From the NCBI GenBank assembly GCA_963821845.1, contig CAWGFI010000006.1, forward strand, positions 513,478 through 577,477: 64,000 bases of DNA, read 5' to 3'. The DNA comes from an uncultured delta proteobacterium (lineage in GTDB: Bacteria > Desulfobacterota > Desulfarculia > JACQYL01 > CAWGVV01). Below, piece after piece: positions 29,818-50,944 of this stretch (position 1 is the first letter of the stretch; the number at the start of each line of letters is the position of its first letter). A program made the translations under genes and the position numbers. The notes under the pieces were generated by a model. The model was not told where the DNA came from and did no database searches. It worked only from the letters and a program-made list of their open reading frames with translations.

Positions 29818-30489
29818 ATGCAGAGTTCCCTTCAATTCTTCCTACATCACCATGACAAGGTGTTCATGTGGGTATCGCAGCATATATGGATCAGCTTTGT
29901 TTCCATCCTGTTGGCATTGATCCTCGGCTTGTCGCTTGGAATCTACATCAGTCTGAACGGTAAGGAACGTCTCGCGGATGTGGTCATCTATCTGGCCGAG
30001 ATTATGATGACCGTGCCGAGTCTGGCCCTGTTCGGTCTGCTGATGTTTATTCTGGCTTACTTCGGTATTACCGCCATCGGCTTTGTTCCCGCCGTCATCA
30101 CGCTGGTCATATACGGTCAGCTACCCATTATCCGCAACACCCATACGGCTTTGTGCGGCGTCGATCCGGGCATCATAGAGGCTGGCAAAGGGATGGGAAT
30201 GACCGAAACGCAGCTCCTGTTCAAGGTAAAACTGCCGGTGGCCACGCCTGTGATCATGGCCGGGGTCCGCAACGCGACGATTCTCATAATAGGGATCGCG
30301 ACCATCGCGGCCCTGATCGGTTCGGGTGGGCTGGGCGCGCCTATTTTCAGAGGTCTGCGGAACGCCCGTATGGACCTTATCATTCTGGGCGGGGTTCTGG
30401 TGTCCCTGCTCGCGGTGTGCGCCGACGCTTTCATGTCCGTTGTTCAGAGGGTTGTGACGCCGAAAGGGATCAGAAAGAGTGCGCTATGA
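29818..30489 (+). CDS. Osmoprotectant (glycine betaine/choline/carnitine-type) ABC transporter permease, OpuBB/OpuCB-like
   Basis: 223 aa. BPD-transporter EAA-type loop: IIEAGKGMGMTETQLLFKVKLPVATPVIMAG. Confidence 0.85.
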   Translation: MQSSLQFFLHHHDKVFMWVSQHIWISFVSILLALILGLSLGIYISLNGKERLADVVIYLAEIMMTVPSLALFGLLMFILAYFGITAIGFVPAVITLVIYGQLPIIRNTHTALCGVDPGIIEAGKGMGMTETQLLFKVKLPVATPVIMAGVRNATILIIGIATIAALIGSGGLGAPIFRGLRNARMDLIILGGVLVSLLAVCADAFMSVVQRVVTPKGIRKSAL

Positions 30490-31592
30490 TCGAACTGGTT
30501 GAGGTGACCAAAACATATCCGAACGGAACCGAGGCGGTGAAACGGCTGAGTTTTACCGTGCGTGACGGCGAAACCTGTGTGCTACTGGGGCCGTCAGGCT
30601 GCGGCAAGACTACGGCCATGAAGCTCATCAACCGGCTCATCCCGGCGACTAGCGGCGGCATATTGATCGACGGTGTGGACAATAAAAAAATCGACGTTAA
30701 CGAGCTGCGAAGAAGCATCGGTTTCGCCATTCAGGATGTGGGGCTTTTTCCGCATATGACGGTGGGTCAGAACATAGCGACAGTCCCGGCGCTCAAGGGA
30801 TGGAGCAAAACCAGGCGGCGCGAGCGGGCTCTGGAATTACTGAACCTGCTGCGGCTGGATCCGAAAAAATTCATCGACAAGTACCCACATGAGCTGTCCG
30901 GAGGACAACGCCAGCGAGTGGGCGTGGCGCGGGCGCTGGGCGCGGACCCGCCCATCCTGTTGATGGATGAGCCCTTCGGCGCGATCGATCCCATCACCCG
31001 TATGGAGTTGCAGAACGAATTTCTGAAGATACAAGAACAGATCAAGAAGACGGTCATCTTTGTTACCCACGATATTTCGGAGGCCATAAAAATAGGAGAC
31101 CAAGTGGCGCTGATGAAAGCGGGCGAACTCGTCCAATTCGGTCCGCCCGTGGACCTGATATTCAATCCAAACACGGATTTCGCGAAATCGTTTACAGGAG
31201 TAGACAGCCCGCTCAAGGGGTTCAGGCGCTGCCGGTGGATACCGCCCTGTCCAATGAAACTCCCGCCGCCAAACCTCACGACAAATCGGACGCCGTCCGG
31301 TAAGCTTATGGACAAGGAAGACCTCCAATGGCTTCCGGTCATTGACGACGAGAACAAATATCTGGGCATGATATTCAGGCGGAATCTGCGCAAGGCCGAA
31401 ATCGTCTCCAAGATTCTCAGCAACAACATGGCCTACGCCACCAAGAACATGACCCTTGATCAGGCCCTTTCCCTACTGCTCACCAGCGGACAAAATTCCC
31501 TGGCGGTGGTGGACGAAGAAAGCGGGAATTTCGAAGGCGTGATCACCTTTGAAAAGCTGCAAAAGGAGCTTTCGGCTCTTTATAGGAAATAA
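30486..31592 (+). CDS. Osmoprotectant ABC transporter ATP-binding protein with C-terminal CBS pair (OpuBA/OpuCA-like); two internal compensating frameshifts
   Basis: Lies in ORF 30153..31592. The start ATG at 30486 overlaps the permease stop. Walker A is GPSGCGKTT, signature LSGGQRQRVGVARAL, Walker B ILLMDEPF. Between about 31205 and about 31300 the family-like sequence (VQALPVDTALSNETPAAKPHDKSDAVR) is in a different frame from the open one. Confidence 0.85.
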   Translation: MIELVEVTKTYPNGTEAVKRLSFTVRDGETCVLLGPSGCGKTTAMKLINRLIPATSGGILIDGVDNKKIDVNELRRSIGFAIQDVGLFPHMTVGQNIATVPALKGWSKTRRRERALELLNLLRLDPKKFIDKYPHELSGGQRQRVGVARALGADPPILLMDEPFGAIDPITRMELQNEFLKIQEQIKKTVIFVTHDISEAIKIGDQVALMKAGELVQFGPPVDLIFNPNTDFAKSFTGVDSPLKGFRRCRWIPPCPMKLPPPNLTTNRTPSGKLMDKEDLQWLPVIDDENKYLGMIFRRNLRKAEIVSKILSNNMAYATKNMTLDQALSLLLTSGQNSLAVVDEESGNFEGVITFEKLQKELSALYRK

Positions 31593-31601
31593 CCCCGATC
31601 A

Positions 31602-32396
31602 ATGAAACATTCCGTGGTTTTCATATGTTTGCTGACCGCGCTGCTCGGCCTCACGGCCTGGATCACCAGTTTGGGATCGATTGGCGGCGTGTACAGCGCT
31701 TTCTCGGCGGCGGACGTGACGCACAACGCTTGGGTCCACTTCAAGATGGTCTTTTTCTCGGTGGCCTTGGCCTCGTTAATCGGGGTTCCCGCCGGAATAC
31801 TGATCAGCCGGCCCGGTTTCAGCCGATTCGCCTGGATCGTTATCGGCGGGGCGGGTATCGGGCAAACCATCCCCAGCCTGGCCATCATTTCCATCATGGC
31901 CCCGATTCTGGGTTTCGGCCTGCAATCGGCCATTGCGGCGCTGGTCATTTACGGCCTGCTTCCCATCGTGCGGAACACATACGCGGGGATAAAAAGCATA
32001 GATCCGTCCATCATCGAAGCCGCCCAGGGCATGGGAATGGACAAGGCGCAGATCGCCTGGAAGATCGAAGCGCCCTTGTCCAAAAAGGTGATACTGGCCG
32101 GAATACGTGTTTCCACTGTTATCACCGTGGGCACGGCCGAACTGGCGGTGCTGGTGGGCGGCGAAGGGCTGGGGAAAATCACACTAACGGGCGTGTACGC
32201 GCGGGAGCCGCTTTTGATCCTGCAAGGCGCCGCGCCTACGGCCGCCATGGCCATAATCCTGGGATACCTGCTCGCGCATTTTGAAAATTGGCTGACACCG
32301 CAAGGGCTCAGGGGTAAACAAACGGCGCAGTGGGAGATTACCTGGAGTGCGAGATGCGAAGATCATTACCGGCCGTCATCTTGGCGGTTTTGCTGA
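31602..32396 (+). CDS. Osmoprotectant ABC transporter permease, OpuBD/OpuCD-like
   Basis: 264 aa. Contains IIEAAQGMGMDKAQIAWKIEAPLSKKVILAG. The last ~20 codons overlap the SBP start and may be out of frame. Confidence 0.8.
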   Translation: MKHSVVFICLLTALLGLTAWITSLGSIGGVYSAFSAADVTHNAWVHFKMVFFSVALASLIGVPAGILISRPGFSRFAWIVIGGAGIGQTIPSLAIISIMAPILGFGLQSAIAALVIYGLLPIVRNTYAGIKSIDPSIIEAAQGMGMDKAQIAWKIEAPLSKKVILAGIRVSTVITVGTAELAVLVGGEGLGKITLTGVYAREPLLILQGAAPTAAMAIILGYLLAHFENWLTPQGLRGKQTAQWEITWSARCEDHYRPSSWRFC

Positions 32397-33313
32397 CAGC
32401 TATTTTTTCCTTTCACCCAACATGGCGCGGGCTTCGGATAAGGAAATCGTTGTCGGCGCGAAAAACTTTACGGAGCAATACCTCATCGGCCAGATGATGA
32501 AGCAGCTTTTGGAAGATCGCGGTTTCAAGGTGTCCTTGCTGTCCGATCTTACCAGCGCGGCTTTGCGGGCGGGTATGGAAAGCGGCGACATCGACCTGTG
32601 CGCCGAATACATCGGGACCGCCTGGATGATTCACCTCAAACACGCGTATGAACCGGGCGTTTCCAATAAAGAACTCTATGAAAAAGTCAAGAAGCTGGAC
32701 GCTCAAAATGGGTTTCATTGGTTTCAGCCTATCTGGAACAACAACACCTTTGCGTTCGCTTCCTGGAACTCGTTCGCAAAGGAAAACAAGCTGAAAACCA
32801 TCTCCGATCTGGCGGCTCTATATAACGCAAAGGATGGGAACATCCCGACCTTTATCGATTTCGAATTCTCGGCGCGTCCCGACGGGTTGCCCGCGCTCGA
32901 ACAATTCTACGATTTCAAGGTCGCGCATTTCGGCGCTGAAGACCAGCGCGCCGGGGATATCACTATTGGGATTGAAGGATCACAAAGCGGAAGTGGTCAT
33001 GATTTTCGCCACCGACGCGTCGCTGACCAAATACGACTGGTACGTTTATCAAGACGATAAATCGTTTTTCCCGCCGTATGACCTGACTCCGTATATAAGA
33101 AAAGAGACGCTCGACAAGTATCCTGAAATCAAGGAAATTATCCGGGAACTCGTGGGTTCTTTTCCCGGAGGAAAAGGAGCCGCCGACGCCAAGGCGGTCG
33201 CGGAATGCCGGAAGGTATGGAGAACGCTCAACGCGCAGGTTGATATCGATCTGGAAGAGCCATCGGACGTGGCGCGAGCGTATTTGATTCGTAAAGGCCT
33301 TATAAAAAATTGA
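32354..33313 (+). pseudogene. Glycine betaine-type substrate-binding protein (OpuBC/OpuCC-like), frameshifted
   Basis: The signal peptide MRRSLPAVILAVLLTAIF is in one frame, with a shift in a T-run about 32405. The body (EIVVGAKNFTEQYLIGQMMKQLLEDRGF...) is in ORF 32347..33060. The C-terminus (VVMIFATDASLTKYDWYVYQDDKSFFPPYDLTPYIRKE...) is in ORF 32834..33313. Confidence 0.8.
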
Positions 33314-33390: not shown

Positions 33391-33473
33391 TGTCCATTTC
33401 GAGCGCAGCGAGAAATCTCCTGCGGGGAGCGCGCGGGAAGAAATTCCCTCGCGAAGATTTTTTTGCGCTTTCC
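33391..33473. repeat. Dispersed repeat of about 80 nt, copy B
   Basis: Sequence is tgtccatttcgagcgcagcgagaaatctcctgcggggagcgcgcgggaagaaattccctcgcgaagatttttttgcgctttcc. Collinear with 19238..19318. Confidence 0.6.
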
Positions 33474-33481
33474 TTGGACTT

Positions 33482-34997
33482 TTACGCGCAGTTAATTATT
33501 TTAGGCGGCCTTTCGGACCAGCGGCCGATGTTGGCTAGTATCAGGTCCGGACTTTCGTAGGCGTCCACCAGCAGCCGATGATAGTAGCATTCTTCCGCGC
33601 TTCTCAGATTGTCGTCGCGGTGGCTGGCGGAATATTTTCGCGCCTCTTCCTCGCTGTAGTTTTCAAAAAGACCCGACAATAGATCCACCGTCCCGCTGCC
33701 CTCATCGAACTGCTCTTTTTTGCGCCAGACGATCTCATCGGGCAGAAGATCCTCAACCGCCTTGCGCAGAATCCATTTTTCAACGGGGGGCGATCCGACA
33801 AGCTTATATTTGGCGGGAACCAGCATACCCATCTCGATCATCTTCAAATCCAGGAACGGCACGCGACCTTCTATAGAATGCGCCATGGTCATTCTGTCCA
33901 CGCGCTGAAGATTGATGTTATGCAGCGAACTCACCGACCGGCGCAATTCATCCTGGAGGATGTCCGGGTCCTTGATATCCTTGTAATAGGTGTAGCCGCC
34001 AAACAGTTCATCGGCCCCTTCCCCGGTCAGGATAACCTTCACATATTCCGCGGCGAGCCGTGAGGTGAAATAGCAGGGGATGGCGCTCCGCACCAGGTCC
34101 TGGTCGAAGGATTCCAGATAGTAGATGATTGTGGGGAGATCTTTTTTCACTTCCTCGGGCGTGATCACATACTCATGATGAATCGAGTCGATATGCCGGG
34201 CGACGATACGCGCGGCTTCGAGATCCTTGCTGCCCTCGATCCCCACGGAAAAAGTGTGCAGCGACCCCATGCTTCTCTTGACCAGAGCCGCGATAACGCT
34301 GCTGTCCAAACCTCCGGACAGAAACGCGCCCAGCGGCACGTCGCTCATGAGACGTTTCTCGACCGATTCCTCCAGCGTGGTTCGGATCTTTTTACAGTAC
34401 CTCGTCCGCGGAACCCTCCCGGCTTTTCAGGTTGGGCACGCTGTAAAAGGTGGAAAACCCTCGCTCGGAATGAAAACAGGAGCCTGGAGGAAATTCGTGG
34501 ATATCACGGCAGTTGGAAGGGAACGCCTTCAACTCGGACGCGAAAACCATGGAGTCATCCAGGTAACCGTAATAGAGCGGCTTGATGCCGATGGGATCGC
34601 GCGCCGCAAAGAAAGCGTTCCGGTCCGAAATGATAAAACTGAACATACCGTCCAGATGTTCGACGACGTCCGAAGCGCTGTCTTCATACTGGTGCAGTAT
34701 GGCTTCGGAGTCGCTAGTGGTTGAAAACCGGTGGCTGCGCGCCAGTTCGTCTTTCAGCCGTGGGAAATTATAGATTTCGCCATTGGCGATTATCGCTTTG
34801 GATCTGTTTTCGTTAAATATGGGCTGGTTTCCTCCTTGCGGGTCCATGATGCTGAGCCGCCGATGACCGAGGACGGTCTGGTCGTCGGAGGAAACAAAGG
34901 CGCCGTGCGCGTCCGGGCCTCGATGAACCATCGAATCGTTCATCCGTTCGATAACCGAGACGTCACTGCCTCCCCATATTGCCGATATGCCACACAT
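33482..34997 (-). pseudogene. Asparagine synthase (glutamine-hydrolysing) family amidotransferase, one frameshift near 34.37 kb
   Basis: The N-terminal Ntn-GATase domain starts MCGISAIWG (catalytic Cys2) in ORF 34392..34997. The synthetase domain, with PP-loop SDVPLGAFLSGGLDSS, is in ORF 33482..34348. Confidence 0.8.
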
Positions 34998-35097
34998 GCC
35001 TAACTCCCTTGGAACTCTGCGCTTGAAACGTACATCCGTTTGTCGGAACGCGCCGGTTGAATTCGAATTGCAGGATAAACGATAAAGAGCGTCCGCG

Positions 35098-36342
35098 CTA
35101 TTTCCTGATCTGGAATATGCCCACCAACCCGTGGCCTACGCCGGTACCGGGCTGAAGCTCCATTTCGAGCTTTCTTAAGCAATAACCGAGCATGGGCTCC
35201 AAAAAGTCCGCTCGGGCGTCAACCCAGTTGACCTCGCTCATATTGTCGGCGGTCGCGATCATGGTTTTCATGGCCTCCGCGAGCGACTCGTTTTCCCGGG
35301 CGTCCCGAGCCATTTGTTCGGCTTCGCTTTTCCGGCCTTCAAACAGCAGGGAAGCGCAATCAACCGCGTCGTTCACCGAGGAAAAAAAGTAGTCGAAAAA
35401 GCTGTTGAGCTTTTCATAGCCTTCGCGGGGCGTATGATCGATCTTCAGGCTCGACAGATCGGTGCGCATATGCGGTTCAAACAGAGAGTTCACATTGACG
35501 CGCATCTTTGGACAATTTGCGTTGTAATCGCCCGTGTCCATGTGCCGGCCGATAAGAATTGATCTATCGAAAAAAGACAACGGTTCTATGGTTACCCCGG
35601 ATCGCCGCGCGGCCGTGTCGATCACCGCGAGGATCTCCTGCTGAGTCATGAGCCGCAACGGGAACGAGGCGATATCGGCGTCTTGCCGCTCCTCTTCCGA
35701 GTAAATATAGGAAATGCGGTAATCCATGAAGTATTCCCGGTCCGGCGGGTTTCCCCACAGGTCCTGCCATTCGTAGGAATACCGCCCCAGCCAGTCGCCG
35801 ACAAATATCGAACCGTCAGCCGCGTGTTCGGCGACATCCGCAATAAGCGCCGCGTTTTGTTCGTCATGGAAGTGCGAAAGCGTTCCGTAGGTGGTGGAAT
35901 ACAGATCGAACGATTCTTCTCCCGTTATTTCCGCGGGCAGTCCATGGGTCAGATCAGCTTCCACGAATTTGTGCGTGGGAAGCTCCCCATAGATACCTTC
36001 GGCCATATCCAGCAGGTCCCGATTGATATCGAGGCCCACATATTCTTCCAAGACACCGGGTTTGATCACGTAGCCGTTGTTGACGGTGTTTTCTTCGGGA
36101 GACGGCACGGAAAGAAGCAATTCATAGCCGTCGGCGCTTCCGCAACCCATGTCGAGGACCCGGAGCTTCTGGCCGGCCGCGGTTTTACGGCCGGTAGCTT
36201 CGCTTAAAAATGGAGCAAGAAACAATGCGGTAGTCGCGTCCTCCCAGCACCGGCGCACGTTATCGTACTTGCCGAGCAACCGTGAGGACTTGTCATATTT
36301 CCCTGTGTTGACAGCCTGGGAATAAGCCGTTTTTTCAGCCAT
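35098..36342 (-). CDS. Class I SAM-dependent methyltransferase with a C-terminal extension of about 200 aa, substrate unknown
   Basis: 414 aa, intact. Motif I is RVLDMGCGSADG, post-I is YVGLDINRDLLDMA, followed by FVEADL and FDLYSTTYGTLSHF. The C-terminal half has no recognisable domain. Confidence 0.7.
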   Translation of the reverse strand: MAEKTAYSQAVNTGKYDKSSRLLGKYDNVRRCWEDATTALFLAPFLSEATGRKTAAGQKLRVLDMGCGSADGYELLLSVPSPEENTVNNGYVIKPGVLEEYVGLDINRDLLDMAEGIYGELPTHKFVEADLTHGLPAEITGEESFDLYSTTYGTLSHFHDEQNAALIADVAEHAADGSIFVGDWLGRYSYEWQDLWGNPPDREYFMDYRISYIYSEEERQDADIASFPLRLMTQQEILAVIDTAARRSGVTIEPLSFFDRSILIGRHMDTGDYNANCPKMRVNVNSLFEPHMRTDLSSLKIDHTPREGYEKLNSFFDYFFSSVNDAVDCASLLFEGRKSEAEQMARDARENESLAEAMKTMIATADNMSEVNWVDARADFLEPMLGYCLRKLEMELQPGTGVGHGLVGIFQIRK

Positions 36343-36371
36343 ATCGATACATCACCTAGTATGAGTTTAGG

Positions 36372-37056
36372 TTACGCGTTCAGCTCTTTTAGATAATCGA
36401 TCGCCTGGAACGCGTCCTTGCAGTGTTTGTCCGCGCCTATTTCATCGGCGAACTTGGAGGAAGTCGGCGCGCCGCCGATCAGGATTTTCACCTTGTCGCG
36501 AACATCGGCTTCTTTCAAAGCCGAGACGATTTCGCCCATTTCCCGCATGGTGGTCGTCAGAAGCGCCGACAGGCCAAGATACTGGGCGCCGTTGTTTTTC
36601 ACTTCCTCGACGATGGTCTTGGTGGCCACGTTGTTGCCTAGATCGATGACCTCATATCCCGCGCCCTTGAGAAGAATGGACACGATGTTCTTGCCGATGT
36701 CGTGCAAATCGTCCGCAGACGGTGGCTATGACGAATTTACCCTTGGGTTCCACGCCGTCTCTCAGCAGGTGGGGGCTCAATATATCCATCGCCGCGCCCA
36801 CGCATTCGGCCGAAGCGAGCATGTCGGGGATAAGGTATTCGCCTTTTTCGAATTTCTCGCCAACCTGTTCCATGGGAGTGGTAAGGGCGTCGACAACGAT
36901 TTCCTTGGCGTCTATGCTTTCCTCGATGGCCTGTTCCACCAGTTCCGTAACCGCGGGCTGCCCTTCAAGACCCTCGTCGATTCCTTCATCTTCCGCTTCC
37001 ACGCGTCCTTGAACTACATTAAATGCGATTTTTTCCAAATATTCCTGTTTATTCAT
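36372..37056 (-). pseudogene. Corrinoid (cobalamin-binding) methyl-carrier protein, MtgC/MtbC-like, one frameshift near 36.71 kb
   Basis: The N-terminal B12-binding_2 cap domain is in ORF 36652..37056. The Rossmann B12 domain, with DxHxxG (DDLHDIGKNIV), is in the frame of ORF 36372..36707. Confidence 0.8.
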
Positions 37057-37097
37057 AATGTTGACCTCTCTTATAGCTTTCCCGCGAAGGGCTTCAG

Positions 37098-38692
37098 TTA
37101 AGCGTTATTGTTCCGCAAGCTTGGCAATAAACCGGGAATCTCCCGGTAAATCCGGTCGATCTTGGCTTCTTCAATATGGCGTCCGGGCAGCGCCTCCAGA
37201 CGATCCAACTCCTCGAGTCCCCTTTCCAGTGTCCGGTCCTCAAGGTCCTTGCTTTCGAACAGATACGGATCGGATACGTAGCCGCTGTGCATGGCCTTGC
37301 GCGCGTGTCGGGCAAAGAGCCACGTTTTGGAATCGATCACCTTTCGCACCATCTTCAGCGCGTCCTCAATCTGACCGCTGTCCATTTCAGGCTCCATCAG
37401 GCAATGTTTCACCTTGCCAATCTGCTCATTGTCCAGAACGGCCTGCAACGGGCAAAAGGTATTGGTGCGGTTGAGCAGCCCGAACGCATAATGGATGTAC
37501 TGGGCGCCGCTCATGGCCATGTAGAGATGGGTGAACAGTTTTTCGAAAACTAGCCTGGCTCCCGGCGCCTTGGCGTCCCCCACGCCCGCCGTGGAGTAGC
37601 AGGGATATTGTAGAATCGGGCCAACTGGACACAGTCGATATTGTATTGGTTGAACTCCGGACAGCCGTACAGGTCGTGCAGATCATCCATGCGCGCCCGC
37701 ACCGGAACGCTGCCGTACAGCACCGGCGCTCCTTCTTTGATCAGTTGGGTGAGCGTAATGCCGGCCAAAATTTCGGCGTTGATTTGCGCCACCATGCCCG
37801 CTTCCTGGATGGGCGCCGTGGATCCGCCCTGCGGCGAAGAGGACATGACCAGCGGCAAACCGGCTTCCACGATGGCAAACACTTTCTCGGCGGTATCGTC
37901 GACAATCTGCAGCGGCGATTTAAAGAGACAGGTGATAAAGGAAATGATGGGGTTTTTCCTGAGCTCCTCGGGGCCGCCCGCGATGATTTCCGCCATGCGT
38001 GATAACATGGCCAGACTGTCAAGATTGGTCAGCCCGGCCTCCACATGCTTGGTTATGTTGTTGAGGCTGGCGAAAAATTTGTTCACATCATGATTTTCGA
38101 CCGTAATTTCCGGATCTTGTATATTCAGCGGCCGAATAAAGAAATCCAGATGCTCCAGCCGGTCGCATAATCGGGCCGCCCGGGCCAGCAAGCCGGCGGT
38201 TCCCCGTTTCTCCTGATGCTGCGGATATTTGATTTTAATCGAATCATCATCCGCCCGCACGAATTCCTGCATGCTGGTTTCCAGCCAAACGTTGCTTTCC
38301 GAACCGGAGCCGAAATAGACCCGAGGCACATCCGCTTCCAGTTTCAGGGAATTCTCGGTATTTCGCGCCCCCAACGTGACGGTCGAAGGCGCTTTTTTCA
38401 TGGCTTCCCGTACCAGGCCTGACGGCAATCGCACCCGCCAGCAGGGATGATTGAATCTTTTTTCCTCGGAAACATCCGCGCCATGGTCTTTATAGAGTTT
38501 GGCCGCCCGTTCGTTGAACGAAAATACGCCGGGATCGGAAAGAATATCCATGGAAGCGCGATCAAGCGTTTTAAGGGCTCGTTCGTCCAGCCGTTCGTAT
38601 GGTTTTACCAGCACGCCCTCTCGATAGGTCGTTGTCAAAATTGCCTCCCTTGTCTGTTCAAAAAATCCGCGAGTGGGTTTCGCGTTGAGCAT
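37098..38692 (-). pseudogene. MttB-superfamily methyltransferase paralogue 1 (long, about 541 aa, no amber codon), one frameshift at a C-run near 37.59 kb
   Basis: ORF 37550..38692 and ORF 37098..37583 join as ...ARFYNIP|CYSTAGVGDAKAPGA... if one C is added to CCC at about 37590. The TIM-barrel MttB pattern runs throughout. Confidence 0.75.
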
Positions 38693-38695
38693 TTC

Positions 38696-39490
38696 TCAGC
38701 CTCTGAATTGCCGCGTATACCGCTTACAGCGTTTGTCGCGACCGACCAGGACTTCAGCCGTCTTGACGGCGCTCATGAATTCCGCGTCCAATGGATCGGC
38801 GATGGCCGCGTCCAATCCGGCGTAGATCGCCATCTGAAGAAATCCTATGTTGAGCTTTTTTCGGGCCGGCAGGCCGTAGGAAACATTGGACAGGCCCAAA
38901 ACAGTGTGCGCTTCGGGAATGTTCGTTTTGAGCGCTTCCAGCGTTTTCAGCGTTGTCAGACCCTGGGTAACGTCGGCGCTGATGGGGAGCGTCAACGGGT
39001 CGAAATAGATCTTGTTCAGTTCGACGCCGCTCCGGGAGCAGAAAGACGCTATCTTTTCGCAAGCCTTCAACCGTTCATCAACGGTTTGAGGAATTCCTTT
39101 TTCGTTCATGGCCAGGGCGATGACTTCGCAGTCGTAGCCTTGGACAAGTTCCATCACCGCATCAAGCGTCTTATCCTCCGCTTTCACGGAATTGATCATG
39201 GCCTTCATGCCGTTCAGCGCTTTCAGCCCGGCTTCGAGCACGCCCGGATCGGCGCTGTCCACACTGATGGTCGCATCGACCGATTCCGAAACAAGCTTCA
39301 CGGCCCAATCCATGGCGGCGATCTCATCGTCCCGCGTTCCATCGCCGGTTCCCACGTTTACATCGATATAAACCGCCCCGGCTTCGGCCTGACCACGGGC
39401 CAGTGCGAGCAGATCGCTGTCATCGCGCTCGCCTATGATCCGCCTCACGTCCTTGATCGTGGCGTTTATTTTTTCTCCGATTATCTTCAT
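38696..39490 (-). CDS. Pterin-binding methyltransferase (methyl-corrinoid:tetrahydrofolate methyltransferase, MtgA/AcsE/MeTr-like)
   Basis: 264 aa, intact. Starts MKIIGEKINAT..., then YIDVNVG, ISVDSADPGVLEAGLK, INSV, LGLSNVSYGLP. This is the dihydropteroate-synthase-like fold pattern. Confidence 0.8.
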   Translation of the reverse strand: MKIIGEKINATIKDVRRIIGERDDSDLLALARGQAEAGAVYIDVNVGTGDGTRDDEIAAMDWAVKLVSESVDATISVDSADPGVLEAGLKALNGMKAMINSVKAEDKTLDAVMELVQGYDCEVIALAMNEKGIPQTVDERLKACEKIASFCSRSGVELNKIYFDPLTLPISADVTQGLTTLKTLEALKTNIPEAHTVLGLSNVSYGLPARKKLNIGFLQMAIYAGLDAAIADPLDAEFMSAVKTAEVLVGRDKRCKRYTRQFRG

Positions 39491-39503
39491 AAGACGCTTC
39501 CTT

Positions 39504-40967
39504 TTAACCGGCCAATATCGACTTTTCGATTCCGGGAACTTCCTTCAGAATCGCTTCCCGCAAGGACGCCGGCAAGACCGGTTTGTTTCCATTGTTCAGG
39601 ATCTCGTGGGCTTTCTCGGACGCTCTTTGCAGGGTGTCCTTCGCGCCCTCGGCGCTCCACCGTTCCCGGTCGAGTCTGTCGCTCAGCGTCGGTTGATAAT
39701 GTTCCCGGCGCATATAGCGGCGCGTGTGCCGGTTGGAAACAAAATGGCCGCCCGGCCCGGTTTGTTTAATCAGGTCATAGGCCAGGGTTTCCTCGTTGAC
39801 CTCGATCCCCGACACCGCTCTCATCAGCATGCCGTTGATTTCGTTATCGATGACCAGCTTGTCGTAAGAAGCGGTCAGACAGAATTCCAGGAACCCGGCG
39901 GCGTCGTGGATGCAGTTGCCTCCGGCCAGCGCCACCAGGGCGCTGGTGATGGCCGATTCGTAGCCGGATTGGGCGTCGTTGATTTTCGAGTCGGACATAC
40001 CCGCCGTGGTGTACACGGGAAGATTGTAGAATTGAGCCATTTGGGCGGCGCCCGCGTTCAGCAGCCCCATTTCGACCGCGCCCGAGAGATATTTCATATC
40101 CCGCAAATCCACGCTCGAAGCCACGCATCCCATAAGCGTCGGAGAGCCGGGATTTACCAGCTGTGCCAACATGACTCCGGCCAGGGTGTCCACGATCTGG
40201 ACCACCAGGTTTCCGGCCAATGTTACGGGCGCCGTGGCGCCGCACAGGGGCTCGGACGGCACGACCAGTGGTAAACCATTACGAACCACCTCCATGGCCA
40301 GCCGTCCGTACTGTTCGTCCAGCTTGAAAGGGCTGATGGAGCAGGTGACGAAGGAAACAAATGGTTTTTCCCGCAGCTTCTCCGGGGAGCCGGCTATCAT
40401 TTCGGCCATCTTGACAACGTCCCGCACGCCTTCAATGGTGTAGACGCCGCCCATGACGTGTTTGCGCGTGTTGTTGAGCGCCGCCGCGAAGCGATTGGCG
40501 TCAATGCGTTCCACGGGCAGTTCGTTGGGATACACATTGAGCATATAGAAATGGATGTTGTCCAAATGCTGAACCATCCGGGCCATGTTGGCGATATCGT
40601 CCAGACGCGCCGGACGGGCCTCGTCGGACCCCGCTTCCTGAACATTGAGCGCCGTGCCTCCGGTTCCCAGATAGACGCTGGCGCCGCCGATCTCGCAATC
40701 GTACTCCCCATTGTCGCCCCTGCCACAAAGCGTGACCGTGGACGGCGCCTTCGCGATCAATTCCTGCGCGAGCTCTGGCGAGACTTTGACCGTACGCGCC
40801 ACGTCATCCACCTCGGCGCCGGCTTTCTTGAAAAGTTGTCTCGCTTCATCGAAGTTGACTTCAACGCCGACTTCCGCCAGCACGCGAAACGTGGTTTCGT
40901 GAATGAGCCTGATGTCTTTATCGTTCAGCGGTTTATAATGGCCCGCCGCGCCATTTTTGTTTTCCAT
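39504..40967 (-). CDS. MttB-superfamily methyltransferase paralogue 2 (487 aa, non-pyrrolysine; glycine betaine/quaternary amine:corrinoid methyltransferase-like)
   Basis: Uninterrupted ORF. Contains IHETTFRVLAEVGVEV, PSTVTLCGR, FVTCSISPF...LPLVVPSEPLCGATAPVTLAG and YNLPVYTTAGMSDSK. There is no in-frame TAG. Confidence 0.8.
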   Translation of the reverse strand: MENKNGAAGHYKPLNDKDIRLIHETTFRVLAEVGVEVNFDEARQLFKKAGAEVDDVARTVKVSPELAQELIAKAPSTVTLCGRGDNGEYDCEIGGASVYLGTGGTALNVQEAGSDEARPARLDDIANMARMVQHLDNIHFYMLNVYPNELPVERIDANRFAAALNNTRKHVMGGVYTIEGVRDVVKMAEMIAGSPEKLREKPFVSFVTCSISPFKLDEQYGRLAMEVVRNGLPLVVPSEPLCGATAPVTLAGNLVVQIVDTLAGVMLAQLVNPGSPTLMGCVASSVDLRDMKYLSGAVEMGLLNAGAAQMAQFYNLPVYTTAGMSDSKINDAQSGYESAITSALVALAGGNCIHDAAGFLEFCLTASYDKLVIDNEINGMLMRAVSGIEVNEETLAYDLIKQTGPGGHFVSNRHTRRYMRREHYQPTLSDRLDRERWSAEGAKDTLQRASEKAHEILNNGNKPVLPASLREAILKEVPGIEKSILAG

Positions 40968-41012
40968 GGTCTGCGTTACCTTATGTTTTGGTGATTTTAG
41001 TTCGGGAGGTCT

Positions 41013-41771
41013 TTAAGCGTGCGCGGTTTGCCGGTGAGACGCCCGCCGGTACGAACAATCTTTGTTCGCGCAATGATCGCAGGGGTTGTAGGCGACTGTG
41101 GGACCCGGTCTATCCGTGACGCCAAAGACGCCGGATATGGATTTGCGGGGCGCCATGAGTCCGCCGGTATTGAGCGACACTCCGATTTCACCGGAATCCA
41201 TGGACGAAAAGAGCTTCTTCTGTTCCATCACGTTCCAGTCGCAATAGCCCGGCGAAAAGGGCAGGGTGGTCCCTTTCCTGATTAGTTTGAGATATGACCC
41301 GTATTGTGAGTGAAACTGCTCGATCATATTTTCGATGGCCACCGAGCCCAGAGATTCGACGATATACGCTTCCGACAACCGGTTCCGCTCAGTCAGTTTC
41401 CTGACCTCTTTTTCGATTTTTGACCCGATGGTTCCCACATACACCACGGCCCGTTTGCAGGAGCTGAACGCCTTGGCCAGCTTGTGACTGCGCCAGGTGG
41501 TTCCGTCAAAAAGACTTACCGCGGTTTTGGAAACGCCGGCGATCGGCTTAACGGAAAACAGCAGTCGAGGGTCGATCACCTGATCGACCCGCTCCATCCA
41601 GACTCCTACTTTGCGCTGAAGCCTGGCGGAAAGGCCGTTTTCGCCCGAACCCCCAAGCATTCTCAGAACTTCGGCTTTGGTATATTTGGGCGCAATACTG
41701 ACCATATTGCTTTCTCCGGGGAGTAGGCATTCATCAGGTTCAAAATCATTAAATTCCCGCAATGCGCGCAT
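41013..41771 (-). CDS. Stand-alone vitamin-B12-dependent methionine synthase activation-domain (Met_synt_B12-like) protein with a C-terminal Cys cluster
   Basis: 252 aa; the start may instead be Met23 at 41705. Contains LPFSPGYCDWNVMEQKKLFSSMD and GGLMAPRKSISGVFG, which resemble the MetH AdoMet-binding reactivation module. The tail is NPCDHCANKDC. Confidence 0.65.
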   Translation of the reverse strand: MRALREFNDFEPDECLLPGESNMVSIAPKYTKAEVLRMLGGSGENGLSARLQRKVGVWMERVDQVIDPRLLFSVKPIAGVSKTAVSLFDGTTWRSHKLAKAFSSCKRAVVYVGTIGSKIEKEVRKLTERNRLSEAYIVESLGSVAIENMIEQFHSQYGSYLKLIRKGTTLPFSPGYCDWNVMEQKKLFSSMDSGEIGVSLNTGGLMAPRKSISGVFGVTDRPGPTVAYNPCDHCANKDCSYRRASHRQTAHA

Positions 41772-41865
41772 TCGTTCCTCCAGTGAGAGACATGAATCTC
41801 CCTCAAGTCCAGGTTTGTCGCGGGCGTCTTAAGAAGATGCTCAGGAAGCGCAAGCGCCTTAGGCG

Positions 41866-42384
41866 CTATGGCTGTTCGGTTATCAAGGAGTCCATGAACC
41901 GAAATACCTCAACGACTCGTTCCAGTTTTTCATTCGACAATCCGGACAACCCCTCGATAATTGACTTCTGCACGGGAGCGGGGGCCTTCTCGGCAAAAGA
42001 GCGGCCGCTGCCCGTCAATTCAATCGTGACCACTCTTCGATCCGTGGAGCTGCGTTTTCTGGTAGCCAGCCCTTTGGCTTCCAGCCGATCGATGATGCCG
42101 GTAATGGTTCCCGGCTTCACCAGTATTCTCTCCGCAAGCTTTGAAAGAGGAGCCGGCCCATATCGATACAACGCCAGCAGACAGCTCAACTGGCCCTGGC
42201 TGATGTCGTATTCCTTTTGCAGCTTTTTGCTGAAGAGTTCGTCCGCCTGCACAAAGCGTCGCAAGTACCAGATTATCCAGAGGACGGAATCCGATAGCTC
42301 TCCTGGCGCCAAACCGCCAACATCAGCGCTACTCCTGTCGAGCGCAAGCCGGTTGCCCTTGTCCGTCTTGTCTTCTCGACTCAT
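41866..42384 (-). CDS. MarR-family transcriptional regulator (paralogue 1)
   Basis: 172 aa. Contains ISQGQLSCLLALYRYGPAPLSKLAERILVKPGTITGIIDRLEAKGLATRKRSSTDRRVV. Confidence 0.85.
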   Translation of the reverse strand: MSREDKTDKGNRLALDRSSADVGGLAPGELSDSVLWIIWYLRRFVQADELFSKKLQKEYDISQGQLSCLLALYRYGPAPLSKLAERILVKPGTITGIIDRLEAKGLATRKRSSTDRRVVTIELTGSGRSFAEKAPAPVQKSIIEGLSGLSNEKLERVVEVFRFMDSLITEQP

Positions 42385-42700
42385 ATGATTGCCGATTGCG
42401 CTCCCCGCTCTAATGAGTTTCTGAGCTTTATTATTTAATTATAGTTAAGATTGTCACATCTAAAATAATTTCAGTTCAAACTATATAGTCAGCCGCGAGT
42501 CTTGTCAAATGTCGTTGCGGCTCCTTATCTGATTATGAGGGAATTAAGACGCGGCAGTTCGGTCATGCGCCGCGCCAGGGCGCGAGTTCCATAAAAACCG
42601 CCGGTCACGCGTCCTGGCGCTCAGCAAAGGAATTTAGCCTAAAACTAACATCGCCGATCCGGGGAAGGCCCGAGAAAAAGCAGCGTGTCTCACGTCCGTT

Positions 42701-44148
42701 TCAATACCGGTAATAATCGGGTTTGTACGGCCCATCCGCGGGAACGCCAATATACCCCGCCTGCTTTTCACTCAGCCTGGTCAATTTTCCTCCCAGTTTG
42801 CCCAGGTGGAGACGCGCCACTTCCTCGTCAAGTTCTTTCGGCAGGGTGTGCACGCCCAGCTCATATTCCTTGGTCCACAGTTCTATCTGAGCCAAGGTCT
42901 GATTGGTAAAGGAATTGGACATGACAAAGCTCGGGTGGCCGGTGGCGCACCCCAGATTGACCAGCCTGCCTTCGGCCAGCATGTACACACTGTGACCGTC
43001 CGGGAAGGTGTAGCGATCCACCTGCGGTTTTATGGAGGTCTTCTCGATATCCGGCCAATCATTCAGCGCGTCTACCTGTATCTCGTTATCGAAGTGGCCG
43101 ATATTGCAGACGATAGCCTGATCCTTCATGCCGGCCATATGCTCGGCGGTAATGACATCGCAATTTCCGGTGGCAGTGACGTAAATGTCGGCGAACTCCA
43201 GCGCGTCCTCCATCGTCACCACTTTAAATCCGGCCATGTAGGCCTGCAGCGCGCAGATGGGATCGACCTCTGTCACGAACACCCGAGCCCGATGCGCGGC
43301 CAGCGCCTCGGCGCATCCCTTGCCCACGTCGCCGTATCCGCACACCAGCGCGGTCTTGCCCGCGACCATGACGTCGGTGGCCCGCTTGATGCCGTCAACC
43401 AGCGATTCCCTGCACCCGTAAATGTTGTCGAACTTGCTTTTGGTCACGGAATCGTTGACGTTTATGGCCGGAAACAGCAGCTCTTTGCTCTTATGCATCT
43501 GATACAGACGATGCACGCCGGTGGTGGTTTCCTCGGAAACGCCCTTCAACCCGTTTACCACGTTGGTCCAGAATCCCGGTTCTTTTTGCAGCGTCTCCTT
43601 GAGCAACGCGTTGATGATTCTGAGCTCCTTGTTATCGGTGGGCTCGTCCAGGATGGAGGGATCTTTTTCCGCGGCGTACCCGCGGTGAGCGAGCAGTGTG
43701 GCGTCTCCGCCGTCATCCACGATCAGGTTCGGCCCCCCGCCGTCCGGCCAGGTAACGGCCTGTTTGGTACACCACCAGTATTCTTCCAGGGTTTCACCCT
43801 TCCAGGCGAAAACCGGAACTCCTGCCTTGGCGATGGCCGCCGCGGCGTGGTCCTGCGTGGAAAATATGTTGCACGAAGCCCATCTGACATCGCGCTCCCA
43901 ACTCCACAAGCGTTTCTATGAGCACGGCCGTCTGAATGGTCATGTGGAGGCTTCCGCTGATCCGCGCCCCTTGCAGCGGTTTTTGAGGCCCGTATTTCTC
44001 TCGCGTGGCCAGAAGCCCGGGCATCTCCTTTTCGGCTATCTCGAATTTCTTTTCTTCCGAAATCGGCTTGATTGATATCCTTGACTTTATAGGGAAGTGA
44101 GGTATCCAATCCTTCCGCGTTTGCCTGTGAAGCCGCGTTCGCTCTCAT
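42701..44148 (-). pseudogene. ahcY: Adenosylhomocysteinase, split over three frames
   Basis: The N-terminus [16 protein letters not shown] is in ORF 43723..44148. The segment [44 protein letters not shown] is in ORF 43794..44024. The rest ([40 protein letters not shown]...) is in ORF 42701..43909. Confidence 0.85.
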
Positions 44149-45356
44149 GCCGCAACCCTTGTTCCTTTCTTGGCGAAGCTCGCCAAAGCTTCCGCTTTAT
44201 CGGTCTTTTCCCAGGGGAAAATATCCCGCCCGAAATGGCCATAGGTGGACGAATCCCGATAGGACCATCCGTCGGGCCGCAGCAGGTTCAATTCCTTGAT
44301 AATGGCGGCGGGGCGAAAGTCGAAAATGTTCTCATGTTCCAGAATTTTCTGAAGGTCGGTGTCTTCCAGCGAACCGGTGCCGTAGGTGTCCACATTGATG
44401 CTGAGAGGCTTGGCCACGCCGATGGCGTAGGCGACCTGAATTTCGCATTTGTCGGCAAGACCCGCGGCCACGATATTCTTGGCGGCGTAGCGACCGTAAT
44501 ATGCGGCGGAGCGGTCGACCTTCGAGGGGTCTTTGCCGGAAAACGCGCCGCCCCCGTGGCTCCCGACTCCTCCATAGGTGTCGACGATGATTTTTCTACC
44601 CGTCACGCCCGAATCCGCATAAGGGCCGCCCAAGTATGAACGAGCCGGTCGGGATTGACGTAAAATTCGGTTTCGTCGCTCAGCATGTCCGTGGGGCCAA
44701 GGAGGTCGCGCGTCGCGTCCATAAGGTCTTTGCGGATGGTATTCCGAGCGGTACTTCATCGGTCTGATGGGAGATCACCACGGTGGTGATATGTTGGGGT
44801 TTACCGTTTTCGATATTGCACCGATATCTGCGATTTGGAATCGGGCCGGAGATAGTCCAAGTCCCTGTTTTTGCGTACGTCCTCCAGATGCTGCAGCAAG
44901 CGGTGGGCGTAGGCGATGGGGGCGGGCATGAGTTCGCGGCGTCTCATTGGTGGCGTACCCGAACATCATTCCCTGGTCCCCGGCGCCCTGTTCCTGGAAC
45001 AGGCCTTCTCCCTCTGATACGCCACAGGCTATGTCCGGTGACTGGGGATGTATTCGGGAGATGTACTCAAAGGAATTATGCCAGAAGTGATATTTTTCAT
45101 GATCGTACCCGATATCATTCACGATCTCGCGGGTAATGACTTCCGTATCGATATCATCCCAACCGCAGCAGGTTACTTCACCCGCATTGACGATCAGGTC
45201 ATGAGCCACCAGCGTCTCGACGGCCACCCGGCTTTTTGCGTCTGCCGCCAGGCAGGCGTCCAGAATCGAGTCGGATACTTGATCGCATATTTTATCCGGA
45301 TGTCCCTCGCTGACTGATTCAGAGGTGAAAACATGATCGGCCGAAATTTTGCTCAT
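44145..45356 (-). pseudogene. metK: S-adenosylmethionine synthetase, several frameshifts between about 44.64 and 44.94 kb
   Basis: The N-terminus [25 protein letters not shown]...[12 protein letters not shown] is in ORF 44775..45356. The C-terminus [11 protein letters not shown]...[19 protein letters not shown] is in ORF 44145..44759. The middle is readable only by frame hopping. Confidence 0.85.
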
Positions 45357-45597
45357 TAAAAAACCTCCTCGGTTTGCGTCTGAATGAATCTGGCCCGGCG
45401 TGTTCCCATTTTCCGCGGCAAACCAGTTTGAGGGTCATAAATAAAGAAGCGCTTATGATAAGCGCCGTGATGTTTTTCCTGTTGAAAAATTATCAGTTGA
45501 AAGTATTTAAAAAAAACGCGGCTGTCAAGCGCAGTACCGGAATTTGTGGGGCAGGGGCGCCGGGGAACGATACTGAACGCCTCGCTGAAAGGCTTGA

Positions 45598-46131
45598 TCA
45601 GCTTTCCTCATCGAGCATGGCCACGAGCTTTTCCAGGCTCTTGACCACTTCCAGATTTTCCCGCTCGGAGAGGCTTTTGAGGCCGTTTATGATCGATTTT
45701 TGGATAGGCGGGGGAGCTTTCTTAACCAGTTCATTACCGGCGCTCGTCATTTGGATATTCACAATTCGCCGGTCGCGCGCGCTTCGCTCTCTTACCACCA
45801 AACTTTTCTGTTCGAGCCGGTCGATGATCCCCGTGATCGTGCTCGGTTTGACCAGGATGGTTTGCGCAAGTTTGGACTGCGGCAGGGGGCCGCTGTCAAA
45901 GAGCGCCAAAAGACACGCCAGTTGATGCTGGGTAACGTCGTAATTTTTTTGCAGATATTTGCTGTACAACTCACCGGCCTGAACCAGTTTGCGGAGAAGC
46001 CAGATTACTCTTCTCGTGGATTCGGGTAGGACTTCATCGACAAGAGGCTGGGGTGGCGCAGCGCAGTCAATTGACGCTTGCTGCTCGATAACCGGTTCAT
46101 CTGGAGTGGAACGCAAATTTTTTCGATTCAT
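45598..46131 (-). CDS. MarR-family transcriptional regulator (paralogue 2)
   Basis: 177 aa. Clearly alignable to the MarR at 41866..42384 over the whole wHTH (VTQHQLACLLALFDSGPLPQSKLAQTILVKPSTITGIIDRLEQKSLVVRERSARDRRIV). Confidence 0.85.
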   Translation of the reverse strand: MNRKNLRSTPDEPVIEQQASIDCAAPPQPLVDEVLPESTRRVIWLLRKLVQAGELYSKYLQKNYDVTQHQLACLLALFDSGPLPQSKLAQTILVKPSTITGIIDRLEQKSLVVRERSARDRRIVNIQMTSAGNELVKKAPPPIQKSIINGLKSLSERENLEVVKSLEKLVAMLDEES

Positions 46132-50261: not shown

Positions 50262-50944
50262 ATGGGGGTCTTTTCTCCATCGAATCGCGTTAGCCACGCC
50301 AGAGCGGACTTTAGGTCCCGGCAGCGCACGAGAACCGTGAGACGCTGTAATCAGTTAACCACCGCGTGGTTCGTAGCCTCATCCCTGTGCAACGGCGAAC
50401 TCACCTGGATGTGCGCGACAGGTTATGGCAGATAACATATCCGCCAGCCAGATGGGTGTGTTCTACACTATTGTTTCCACTAACAAAATCCAAGGACAAA
50501 ACACACCATTATGAAACCAGTCTGCCACAAACAACCCAGTTTTGATAGGCTTTTTGGTAAAGAAATCATTGCCCCCAGCACATGGACCACCTACTGTTGA
50601 TTTTTGTCGGCCTCGATGGTTTCCCTCTTGCCGCGACTAGTCGCCAAAACAATTCCATAAAATTCATTCTCGCCTTTCATGTGGAGGTTCTGGCAAGCTG
50701 ACCTAATAATGACTGGCACTATTGCTATATACCGCGTCATTCGGCGAAATCATCTTAAGCATGTACGAATTATGACATGATATTTACTGACACTTAACCA
50801 GGAATCGCGGGCGGCATCCATACACCTGATTCGCAAACCGTACCACCCTGCCACCGCTAGTTTATCTCTGGGTGACCACCTGGACCAAATATGGATTAAG
50901 CAAAACATGGAGGAGTGGATCAAAGCCAAATCGTTTACGTATAT

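Follow-up and report, generated by a model that had tools for sequence, protein, structure and literature searches.

We describe an operon for corrinoid-dependent methyl transfer on the minus strand of a 64,000-nt stretch of DNA (hereafter the window) from contig CAWGFI010000006.1 of an uncultured delta proteobacterium. Its five core genes code for two methyltransferases of the MttB family (MttB_a and MttB_b), a corrinoid protein (CoP), a methyltransferase acting between tetrahydrofolate (THF) and corrinoid proteins (MeTr), and a protein of 252 amino acids (aa), here named ActD, which resembles the activation domain of the methionine synthase MetH. The reading which we prefer, with a confidence slightly better than even, is that of an importer-linked operon in which methyl groups from an onium-type donor would be passed to THF by way of the two MttBs and the corrinoid protein, with ActD as a dedicated repair factor. 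The locus is one copy of an operon which is widespread in Desulfobacterota and Nitrospirota.

Corrinoid methyltransferases stall when their cobalt is oxidized. In the methylamine, methanol, betaine and acetyl-CoA-pathway systems they are brought back by the RamA/RACo route, which is an ATP-driven reduction. To our knowledge the other route, reductive methylation driven by S-adenosylmethionine (SAM), has so far been known for methionine synthase only. We found no link between proteins like TM0269 or PF02965 and MttB systems in the literature covered, which was incomplete, and the combination of a MetH-type activator with an MttB operon appears to be undescribed.

Gene content, conservation and integrity of the operon

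The core genes occupy positions 36372-41771. The original prediction, made from the letters of this DNA, had placed the co-directional genes correctly, which are all on the minus strand, and had counted six of them where there are five. They are ActD (41013-41771, whose true start may be Met22), MttB_a (39504-40967, 487 aa, 371 bits to PF06253), MeTr (38696-39490, 264 aa, a methyl-THF:corrinoid protein methyltransferase or MT2 of the AcsE/MeTr type, 93.5 bits to PF00809), MttB_b (37098-38692, a second non-pyrrolysine MttB paralogue, present as two open reading frames (ORFs) which score 144 and 21 bits to PF06253) and CoP (36372-37056, with a B12-binding_2 cap, PF02607, and a B12-binding domain, PF02310, on two pieces). 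PF06253, PF02310/PF02607 and PF00809 all matched in the genes where they were expected, and the domain assignments of the proposed three-component module of MttB, corrinoid protein and THF methyltransferase hold. MeTr, the pterin-binding MT2 of this module, scores 278 bits to PRK07535, whose cutoff is 259, and its top matches in the PDB are the MeTr structures 2yci (178 bits) and 2e7f (158 bits). CoP combines the cap and the Rossmann B12 domain with a DxHxxG motif and scores below the equivalog cutoffs of the NCBIfam corrinoid-protein families.

The core genes were correctly recognized in the original prediction; the unit to which they belong is longer than was described there. It has eight genes in the order MarR-ActD-MttB_a-MeTr-MttB_b-CoP-SAM methyltransferase-AsnB (41866-42384 through 33482-34997), and an importer lies alongside. 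The intergenic gaps in the unit are short, and the best promoter-like site of our search, an 11/12 match at 42508-42480, is found just upstream of MarR.

The distribution of the operon was examined with a profile of ActD which was scanned against one genome per bacterial or archaeal species. At least 580 loci matched, and the best 80 of these were examined for gene context by tblastn and clustering of ORFs; some of the counts given below use 87 loci, and the loci of related genomes are labelled L001 and so forth. The best 80 of the at least 580 matches belong almost all to Desulfobacterota (Desulfobacterales, Syntrophales and Desulfomonilaceae) and Nitrospirota, and the gene order is kept in nearly every locus among them which is sufficiently long. 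Searched by profile, 1.84 billion representative proteins gave 1,928 clusters (50% identity) of the ActD family at E ≤ 1e-30. The metagenomic relative L001, with an ActD 80% identical to that of the window, has an intact operon consisting of MarR, ActD (258 aa), MttB (487 aa), the pterin methyltransferase (263 aa), a second MttB (505 aa), CoP (227 aa), the SAM methyltransferase (414 aa) and AsnB (505 aa). Intact operons are found in independent assemblies, in L001-L003 at 80% identity and in L004 and L005 at about 41% ActD identity. Across the loci ActD has the lowest identities (34-45%), those of the neighbours being 54-72% for MttB_a, 47-72% for MttB_b and 53-74% for CoP.

The outer genes of the unit recur as well: MarR lies upstream of ActD in 47 loci, the SAM methyltransferase gene follows CoP in 43, and an AsnB-like gene follows the cluster in 49. 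An OpuAC-type importer stands beside the cluster, divergent from MarR, in about 35 of the 80 related loci. In a Syntrophales-type variant MetF (PF02219) is inserted between ActD and MttB_a and the SAM methyltransferase is absent (L087:10645-11565 and eight other loci), and in a few loci MttB_b is replaced by two short MttB-like genes. The cultured Desulfoferrobacter suflitae (L089, SCVX01000092.1, 3663-17261) has the cluster in full; two AsnB-like genes, metK and ahcY come after it, all co-directional. The D. suflitae cluster is flanked by an MscS/BON gene and TrkAH genes.

The copy in the window is not intact. Indels were located by alignment of the DNA with L001, to which it is 84% identical in nucleotides, and all of them are single and uncompensated: MttB_b lacks a base near 37605, CoP has an extra G near 36716 and asnB an extra base near 34401. 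Correction by one base gives a read-through MttB_b of 531 aa and a CoP of 227 aa with the sequence DDLHDIGK, which holds the DxHxxG motif. The MttB of about 541 aa with insertions which had been described for this place is in reality two ORFs in different frames on either side of the missing base. At least six genes are split by 1-nt indels in about 16 kb (33400-45400 and 32347-33313), namely metK, ahcY, MttB_b, CoP, asnB and the gene for the OpuAC binding protein.

It could be argued that the frameshifts in MttB_b, CoP and asnB are genuine and that the window holds a decaying pseudogene cluster; three cluster genes with uncompensated 1-nt indels relative to L001 is what such decay would look like. 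Against this, metK and ahcY, which are housekeeping genes, and the importer binding protein are broken within the same 16 kb while the relatives are intact (MttB_b is 505-513 aa in L001 and L005, and CoP is 227 aa in other assemblies), and for this reason we favour assembly error. Apart from the indels, moreover, conservation relative to L001 is good, with 80-90% protein identity at the nucleotide identity given above. Judged from these comparisons the indels are most likely errors of assembly and not signs of decay, and a pseudogene cluster is in our opinion highly unlikely. The source assembly is probably error-prone, maybe a long-read one, and ORF-based annotation of the contig is expected to be fragmentary.

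ActD and the proposed reactivation of the corrinoid protein

ActD had been proposed to be a MetH activation domain, and this holds for its predicted fold, its match in the PDB and its relatives; its own score to PF02965 is below threshold (18.2 bits, gathering score 25). Its relatives at about 40% identity do carry the PF02965 annotation. In a phmmer search the window ActD matches TM0269 of Thermotoga maritima (PDB 1j6r, E = 3e-4). The AlphaFold2 (AF2) model of ActD (pLDDT 84.5, pTM 0.82) places TM0269 at rank 1 in Foldseek (E = 1e-11, TMt 0.84) and the MetH reactivation domains of Thermus, E. coli and human at ranks 2-19; the next fold comes at E = 2e-3. With the relatives, the PDB match and the predicted fold taken together, we regard ActD as a genuine stand-alone homologue of the MetH activation domain.

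The SAM contacts of MetH are Asp946, Glu1101, Tyr1130, Arg1134, Tyr1139, Tyr1189 and Tyr1190 (PMC1282579). In hhalign the ActD sequence LPFSPGY is aligned with IRPAPGY of MetH; the N-terminal contacts (Asp946) gave no alignment. All 83 ActD sequences have Tyr176, the counterpart of MetH Tyr1139, and all have Glu or Asp at position 147, at or near the place of Glu1101; there is another acidic residue at 151. The position of Arg1134 in the RxxxGY motif is more variable, with Arg in 64 of the 83 sequences, Cys in 13 and Pro in 6. Across the loci there was no correlation between the Arg, Cys or Pro variant of the motif and the presence of the SAM methyltransferase of the operon or of MetF.

Two features are specific to ActD: a cysteine directly after GY (Cys177, in FSPGYCDW) and a C-terminal tail with the sequence YNPCxxCxxxxCxxRR (C231-x2-C234-x4-C239). 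The CxxCxxxxC of the tail had been pointed out in the original prediction; it is present in the window ActD and throughout the family. All four cysteines are found in 82 of 83 sequences, and TM0269 and MetH have neither feature. A CX2CX4C spacing serves for ligation of [4Fe-4S] in the corrinoid iron-sulfur proteins AcsC and CdhE (PMC4023990). The four-cysteine motif of ActD probably binds a metal centre, and our guess is that this would be a [4Fe-4S] cluster and the entry point for electrons.

In practically all related genomes ActD opens the row of structural genes, and its place is always inside the operon. It is also found in other corrinoid operons. A Zixibacteria contig (L090:5544-9276) has MttB, ActD, CoP and a homocysteine S-methyltransferase (PF02574); on another contig the order is PF02574, ActD, MttB; and on a third PF02574 lies beside ActD with CoP and a URO-D methyltransferase close by. 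This suggests that MttB is the module which donates the methyl group in such operons, since the homocysteine domain can only accept it. The loci L090:5544-9276 and L091:685-3746 resemble a B12-dependent methionine synthase fed by an MttB substrate, a corrinoid analogue of betaine-homocysteine methyltransferase.

The family is thus regularly embedded in split, MetH-like corrinoid systems, some of them with MttB as the source of the methyl group, and this supports a role together with the corrinoid protein and not a chance location. As ActD is the first structural gene across genomes and also occurs inside other MttB/corrinoid operons, we take it to be functionally tied to CoP. It is quite likely, in our judgement, that ActD acts in the reactivation of the corrinoid protein of this operon. 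That it uses SAM as MetH does we believe with less assurance, although we lean towards it; SAM-dependent repair is a plausible proposal.

A detached activation domain could in principle serve a truncated MetH encoded elsewhere, as TM0269 does for TM0268, and its proximity to MttB would then be incidental. TM0269 is indeed the closest solved relative of ActD, and Desulfovibrio has a MetH without PF02965 (PMC5764234). Nevertheless we hold this to be extremely unlikely: ActD opens the structural genes of the operon in two phyla in spite of being the least conserved of them (34-45%, as against 55-74% for its neighbours), in Zixibacteria it is flanked by MttB and the corrinoid protein, and there is no MetH gene nearby in any of the loci.

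The question of RamA is more difficult. No RamA/RACo homologue was found in the 64-kb window by tblastn (best E = 3) with the RACo protein of L073, which has the domains Fer2, RACo_linker, Raco_middle and RACo_C_ter. A RACo gene is present within about 10 kb of ActD in three of 87 loci. The one in L073 closes a separate module of the conventional kind, pterin methyltransferase-CoP-MttB-MttB-DUF1638-RamA (L073:480-7660). In L073, and likewise in L015, L039, L050, L051 and L071 downstream of asnB, a conventional RamA-type module adjoins the ActD operon, so that the two activation systems stand side by side. A scan with a RACo alignment showed that at least six of the 80 genomes with the ActD cluster (L009, L010, L019, L050, L073 and L086) have a RACo gene in their assemblies too. 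There is also a natural fusion of 839 aa, P0304 (L172:1551-4070), in which an ActD-like domain is combined with a complete RACo (Fer2, linker, middle and C-terminal domains); the gene is located beside those for a corrinoid protein and a URO-D methyltransferase. The ActD-like part of P0304 has kept CxxCxxxxC and is without the Tyr of GY and without Cys177. The fusion makes a part for ActD in corrinoid reactivation more credible and suggests that the two devices can cooperate.

The earlier claim of a MetH-type activator instead of RamA consequently holds for the operon only, in view of the RACo genes found elsewhere in some of the genomes and of the fusion. Given this co-occurrence and the fusion, ActD may be a helper of an ATP-dependent activase and not a substitute for one. 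In such a scheme it would be an accessory of an activase of the RamA/RACo type encoded elsewhere, docking on or uncapping the corrinoid protein or adding a trap by SAM methylation. P0304 with its neighbourhood fits with this, as does the presence of RACo within a few kb in L050 and L073, and one has to bear in mind that the RamA search for the source genome covered 64 kb of a 586-kb contig. On the other hand, the RACo genes which can be placed sit in the separate conventional module (L073) and not in the ActD operon, 84 of the 87 loci have none inside about 10 kb, and the ActD-like part of the fusion is divergent. The SAM-dependent activation domain of MetH, moreover, works without an ATP-dependent partner, which is established biochemistry. 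We consider an accessory role rather unlikely. That ActD makes RamA unnecessary is a tentative proposition, to which we give somewhat more credit than to the accessory role and which we would still not call probable. A precedent in the opposite direction is known, since RamA-like proteins reactivate MetH lacking PF02965 in Desulfovibrio and Phaeobacter (PMC5764234).

The MttB paralogues and the proposed direction of methyl flow

MttB_a and MttB_b are 30% identical, and each has its own group of orthologues at 50-72% identity across two phyla. The two very divergent paralogues of the original prediction are borne out by these figures, and judged from them the proteins are anciently diverged and belong to separate orthologue groups. 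In the PDB, MttB_a scores 265 bits to MtgB of Desulfitobacterium hafniense and 247 bits to MttB of Methanosarcina barkeri; MttB_b scores 149 bits to MttB and 119 bits to MtgB. Neither reaches the equivalog cutoff of 525 for TIGR02369 (MttB_a 444.6 bits, MttB_b 202 and 34 bits).

The positions corresponding to pyrrolysine (Pyl) and to Arg312 of MtgB were read from the motif which joins FYxxP and D(S/A)K without gaps. At the position of Pyl334 in M. barkeri MttB, MttB_a has Met324 (AUG) and MttB_b has Val (GTG), and no in-frame amber codon is present at this position in either gene; both enzymes are non-pyrrolysine proteins, as had been predicted. Among the orthologues the residue is Met in 72 of 72 for MttB_a and Val in 44 of 45 for MttB_b. 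Two leads to pyrrolysine were followed and rejected. An Rfam PYLIS_3 match inside MttB_a (39899-39998, minus strand, 47.7 bits, gathering score 38) has model positions 1-3, the UAG, aligned to AUG and reflects coding homology only. The break in MttB_b is not a UAG at the Pyl position: the missing base, about 15 nt upstream, shifts the frame, and the position itself reads GTG. The PYLIS_3 model can, as seen here, fire above its gathering threshold on coding homology to a Pyl-type mttB alone.

The glycine-betaine site of MtgB consists of Y97, F356, R312 and H348, of which R312 forms a salt bridge to the acidic group of the substrate and is conserved in every member whose function is known (MtgB, MtcB, MtyB, MtpB and MthB), whose substrates are all acidic (Picking et al., 2026, PMC13080624). 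The residue at the position of R312 is Tyr319 in MttB_a (Tyr in 72/72 orthologues), Tyr in MttB_b (in all 45 orthologues with a readable motif) and Tyr in M. barkeri MttB. MttB_a has Gly104, Asp355 and Cys363 at the positions of Y97, H348 and F356, so that all four glycine-betaine-binding residues are lost. MttB_b has Tyr at the position of H348, and it has kept the equivalent of Tyr364 of MttB (PMC9842639). The two enzymes had been assigned to the quaternary-amine clade with MtgB, MtcB, MtpB and MtyB. This is at variance with the replacement of the shared Arg312 by Tyr in both of them, which leaves the assignment without support.

From these residues both enzymes look more like an MttB without pyrrolysine than like the characterized quaternary-amine enzymes, and their substrates are probably not the acidic betaines which the latter use. 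Our guess is that the donor is non-acidic; the transporter suggests compatible solutes of the onium type. His170, Cys209 and His354 of MttB_a and their equivalents in MttB_b are invariant in both groups and absent from MtgB. A zinc site or thiol-activating site was considered in this connection, and no inference was drawn, as the His and Cys of this set are also present in M. barkeri MttB.

The importer is an ABC system of the OpuC/OpuA type which consists of a permease, an ATPase with CBS domains, a second permease and the OpuAC binding protein (29818-33313, plus strand, convergent with asnB; PF00528, PF00005 with PF00571, and PF04069). According to the reading which we prefer, the importer would bring in one or more quaternary-amine-like compounds, and MttB_a and MttB_b would each move a methyl group from a substrate of its own to the Co(I) of the shared corrinoid protein. 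The AcsE-like methyltransferase would hand the methyl group to THF, and methyl-THF would either be oxidized or go into methionine and SAM. Once oxidation has taken the cobalt to Co(II), ActD would bind the corrinoid protein in the manner of TM0269 and the C-terminal domain of MetH and trap the transient Co(I) by SAM methylation, electrons possibly entering by a [4Fe-4S] cluster held by its four cysteines. This direction of flow is supported by the importer beside the cluster, by MetF in the Syntrophales variant and by the operons with MttB, ActD, CoP and homocysteine methyltransferase.

The flow could also be the reverse one. The operon would then be mainly anabolic, a split cycle similar to methionine synthase in which MeTr loads CoP from methyl-THF, the methyl group goes to homocysteine and ActD plays its MetH role; the homocysteine step would be carried out by an unlinked PF02574 protein or, more speculatively, by an MttB paralogue, and the product would feed MetK, the SAM methyltransferase and AhcY. 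Three of the four modules of MetH are in the cluster (pterin-binding, B12-binding and activation), related ActD operons carry a homocysteine methyltransferase, and MetF is found inside the operon in Syntrophales. Furthermore, betaine demethylation and methionine synthesis in Ruegeria share a single corrinoid protein and a single pterin methyltransferase (PMC12478193).

The genes around the core are of interest for this alternative. The conserved SAM-dependent methyltransferase of the operon (MT414, 414 aa, 35098-36342, minus strand) is class I-like with a weak match to Methyltransf_25; its family has proteins of 414-420 aa with a mean column identity of 70%, more than 1500 homologues and a helical C-terminal half. 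Its function could not be read from structure, as the AF2 model (pLDDT 74) matches generic class I methyltransferases only (TMq ≤ 0.38 in Foldseek). The genes metK (44145-45356, minus strand, recognized from its translation) and ahcY (42701 to about 44148, minus strand, with AdoHcyase domains), both frameshifted, lie upstream of the MttB operon. They had been described as part of the same gene string; they are upstream and on the same strand, but they are cut off from the operon by MarR and the promoter-like site and have a MarR of their own. metK and ahcY are linked to the cluster also in D. suflitae, and metK adjoins it in L018, L055 and L066; the linkage of SAM-cycle genes is recurrent and not universal. 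It had been taken to support SAM-dependent repair. The linkage does recur, but the presence of MT414 in the operon explains it at least as well as a repair reaction, in which SAM would be used only rarely. Together, MT414, AsnB, metK, ahcY and the MetF variant give a hint of a connection with the methionine/SAM cycle.

In spite of these points we find the anabolic cycle distinctly unlikely. A PF02574 gene is present in the cluster in none of the 87 loci, no signature of a zinc site was found which would set these MttBs apart (M. barkeri MttB has the conserved His and Cys as well), and the OpuAC importer points to an imported methyl donor. Furthermore, the characterized enzymes of the MttB family are all methyl-donor modules.

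Methyl flow from an imported donor to THF, with ActD as repair factor, is thus the reading to which we return, and several of our observations weigh against it. Two of the five core genes are frameshifted in the window copy. The PF02965 score of the window ActD falls short of the gathering score, and its clade has Pro where MetH has Arg1134. RACo genes occur in some of the same assemblies, the fusion with RACo exists in nature, and ActD may assist rather than replace. Both MttBs are without Arg312, the hallmark of the characterized quaternary-amine enzymes, and it is from the transporter alone that the substrate class has been deduced. Finally, a simple catabolic model does not account for MT414, the AsnB-like genes and the linkage to metK and ahcY.

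A more far-reaching version of the reading can be formulated. ActD would then be a self-sufficient, ATP-independent reactivase which takes an electron from ferredoxin through its [4Fe-4S] cluster and, in an adjacent MetH-type pocket, a methyl group from SAM and which replaces RamA in a whole class of anaerobe systems. The MttBs, having neither pyrrolysine nor the Arg of the acidic-betaine enzymes, would represent new substrate classes and might use non-acidic onium donors (choline, tetramethylammonium or sulfonium compounds, for example), and the operon would be coupled to a SAM cycle of its own (MetK, AhcY and MT414). We think that this combination is unlikely, a shade more so than the accessory role discussed above. 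If, however, the operon does use the SAM route, then this route is not confined to MetH and would work in many sulfate reducers, syntrophs and Nitrospirota which process methylated onium compounds in sediments. The four-cysteine motif would, if the proposal is true, be a new built-in entry point for electrons. The two large MttB subfamilies have active sites unlike those of the pyrrolysine enzymes and of the characterized betaine enzymes, and this has a bearing on how the turnover of quaternary amines and methylamines and the precursors of methane are predicted from metagenomes. D. suflitae, as a cultured carrier, is a ready experimental model.

The remaining genes of the region can be described briefly. 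Going by its MnmE (best match 65% identical, the next one 53%), the source is a bacterium of the sulfate-reducer type from an uncultured lineage of Thermodesulfobacteriota. The regulator at the head of the unit is of the MarR family (41866-42384, minus strand, PF01047 62.6 bits), and a second MarR paralogue lies upstream of metK (45598-46131, minus strand, PF01047 59.4 bits). These two paralogues, which head the metK-ahcY pair and the MttB operon, are 51% and 78% identical, respectively, to the MarR of the L001 cluster; the pair suggests related ligands or a coordinated control. The last gene of the unit, asnB (33482-34997, minus strand), codes for an asparagine synthase B homologue which scores 210 and 323 bits to PRK09431 on its two pieces. 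It is of the type which we call type 1, with an N-terminal Cys (MCGI). Type 2 proteins are less than 40% identical to type 1 and have Ala, Ser or Gly for the N-terminal Cys in 37 of 39 cases (e.g., L087:16159-17649 and L071:16809-18344); going by this substitution the Cys-less proteins are predicted to be unable to hydrolyse glutamine, and another amide may be formed by them. The flank on the other side of metK (48216-50297 and 53118-62265) has genes for an MscS-type channel, GlgE, a maltokinase-like protein and several proteins of the alpha-amylase family, as in a trehalose/alpha-glucan pathway, which gives it a flavour of osmoadaptation.

Comparison with known systems

The closest relatives of ActD are TM0269, which is the stand-alone MetH activation protein of T. 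maritima according to Huang et al. (2007) as cited in PMC7857596, and the MetH reactivation domain (PDB 1msk, 8ssd). ActD shares with them the predicted fold, the loop xFSPGY/RPAPGY, which holds the Tyr that stacks on adenine, and the strand PRKSISG/PGASVSG, and with TM0269 also the stand-alone form of about 200-250 aa and a gene beside that of the B12-binding partner. The partner is where they differ, as that of ActD is a corrinoid protein working with methyltransferases of the MttB family and of the AcsE type and not MetH. In addition, ActD has the Cys after GY and the NPCxxCxxxxCxxRR tail, and in the window ActD the Arg of the motif is changed to Pro.

The MtgABC system of D. hafniense and the MtcB, MtpB, MtyB and MthB systems of Eubacterium limosum resemble the window operon in having a non-Pyl MttB as first methyltransferase (MT1), a corrinoid protein, an MT2 which methylates THF and a link to betaine-type transport. 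The window operon is different in the active sites of its MT1 enzymes, with Tyr for Arg312 in both and without Y97, H348 and F356 in MttB_a (PMC13080624). It has two MT1 paralogues, an MT2 of the AcsE/MeTr type, a SAM methyltransferase and AsnB-like genes. The known systems rely on activation of the RamA type, whereas the activator encoded in the window operon is of the MetH type.

M. barkeri MttB (7xcl) has in common with the window proteins the Tyr at the position of Arg312, found in both paralogues, the Gly-Thr of the cis-peptide in MttB_a, the Tyr364 in MttB_b and the match to PYLIS_3. It differs from them by its UAG and pyrrolysine, and the window MttBs stay below the TIGR02369 cutoff; the acceptor downstream would be THF and not coenzyme M.

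With the RamA/RACo activases (RACE) ActD has in common its presumed task, which is to return Co(II) corrinoid proteins to the cycle, and its place in operons for corrinoid methyltransferases. The fold predicted for ActD is unrelated to theirs, it has no ASKHA ATPase and no 2Fe-2S domain, and the energy for repair would come from SAM and not from ATP.

The MtgBCD(E) system of Ruegeria pomeroyi (Mausz et al., 2025, PMC12478193) is likewise made up of a protein of the MttB family, a corrinoid protein and a methyltransferase of the pterin type, with a link to the methionine/SAM cycle. It is a system of aerobic Alphaproteobacteria whose genes do not lie together, and RamA with DUF1638 is credited with its reactivation; its homocysteine module MtgE has no counterpart in the window cluster, where the activator encoded with the corrinoid protein is ActD.

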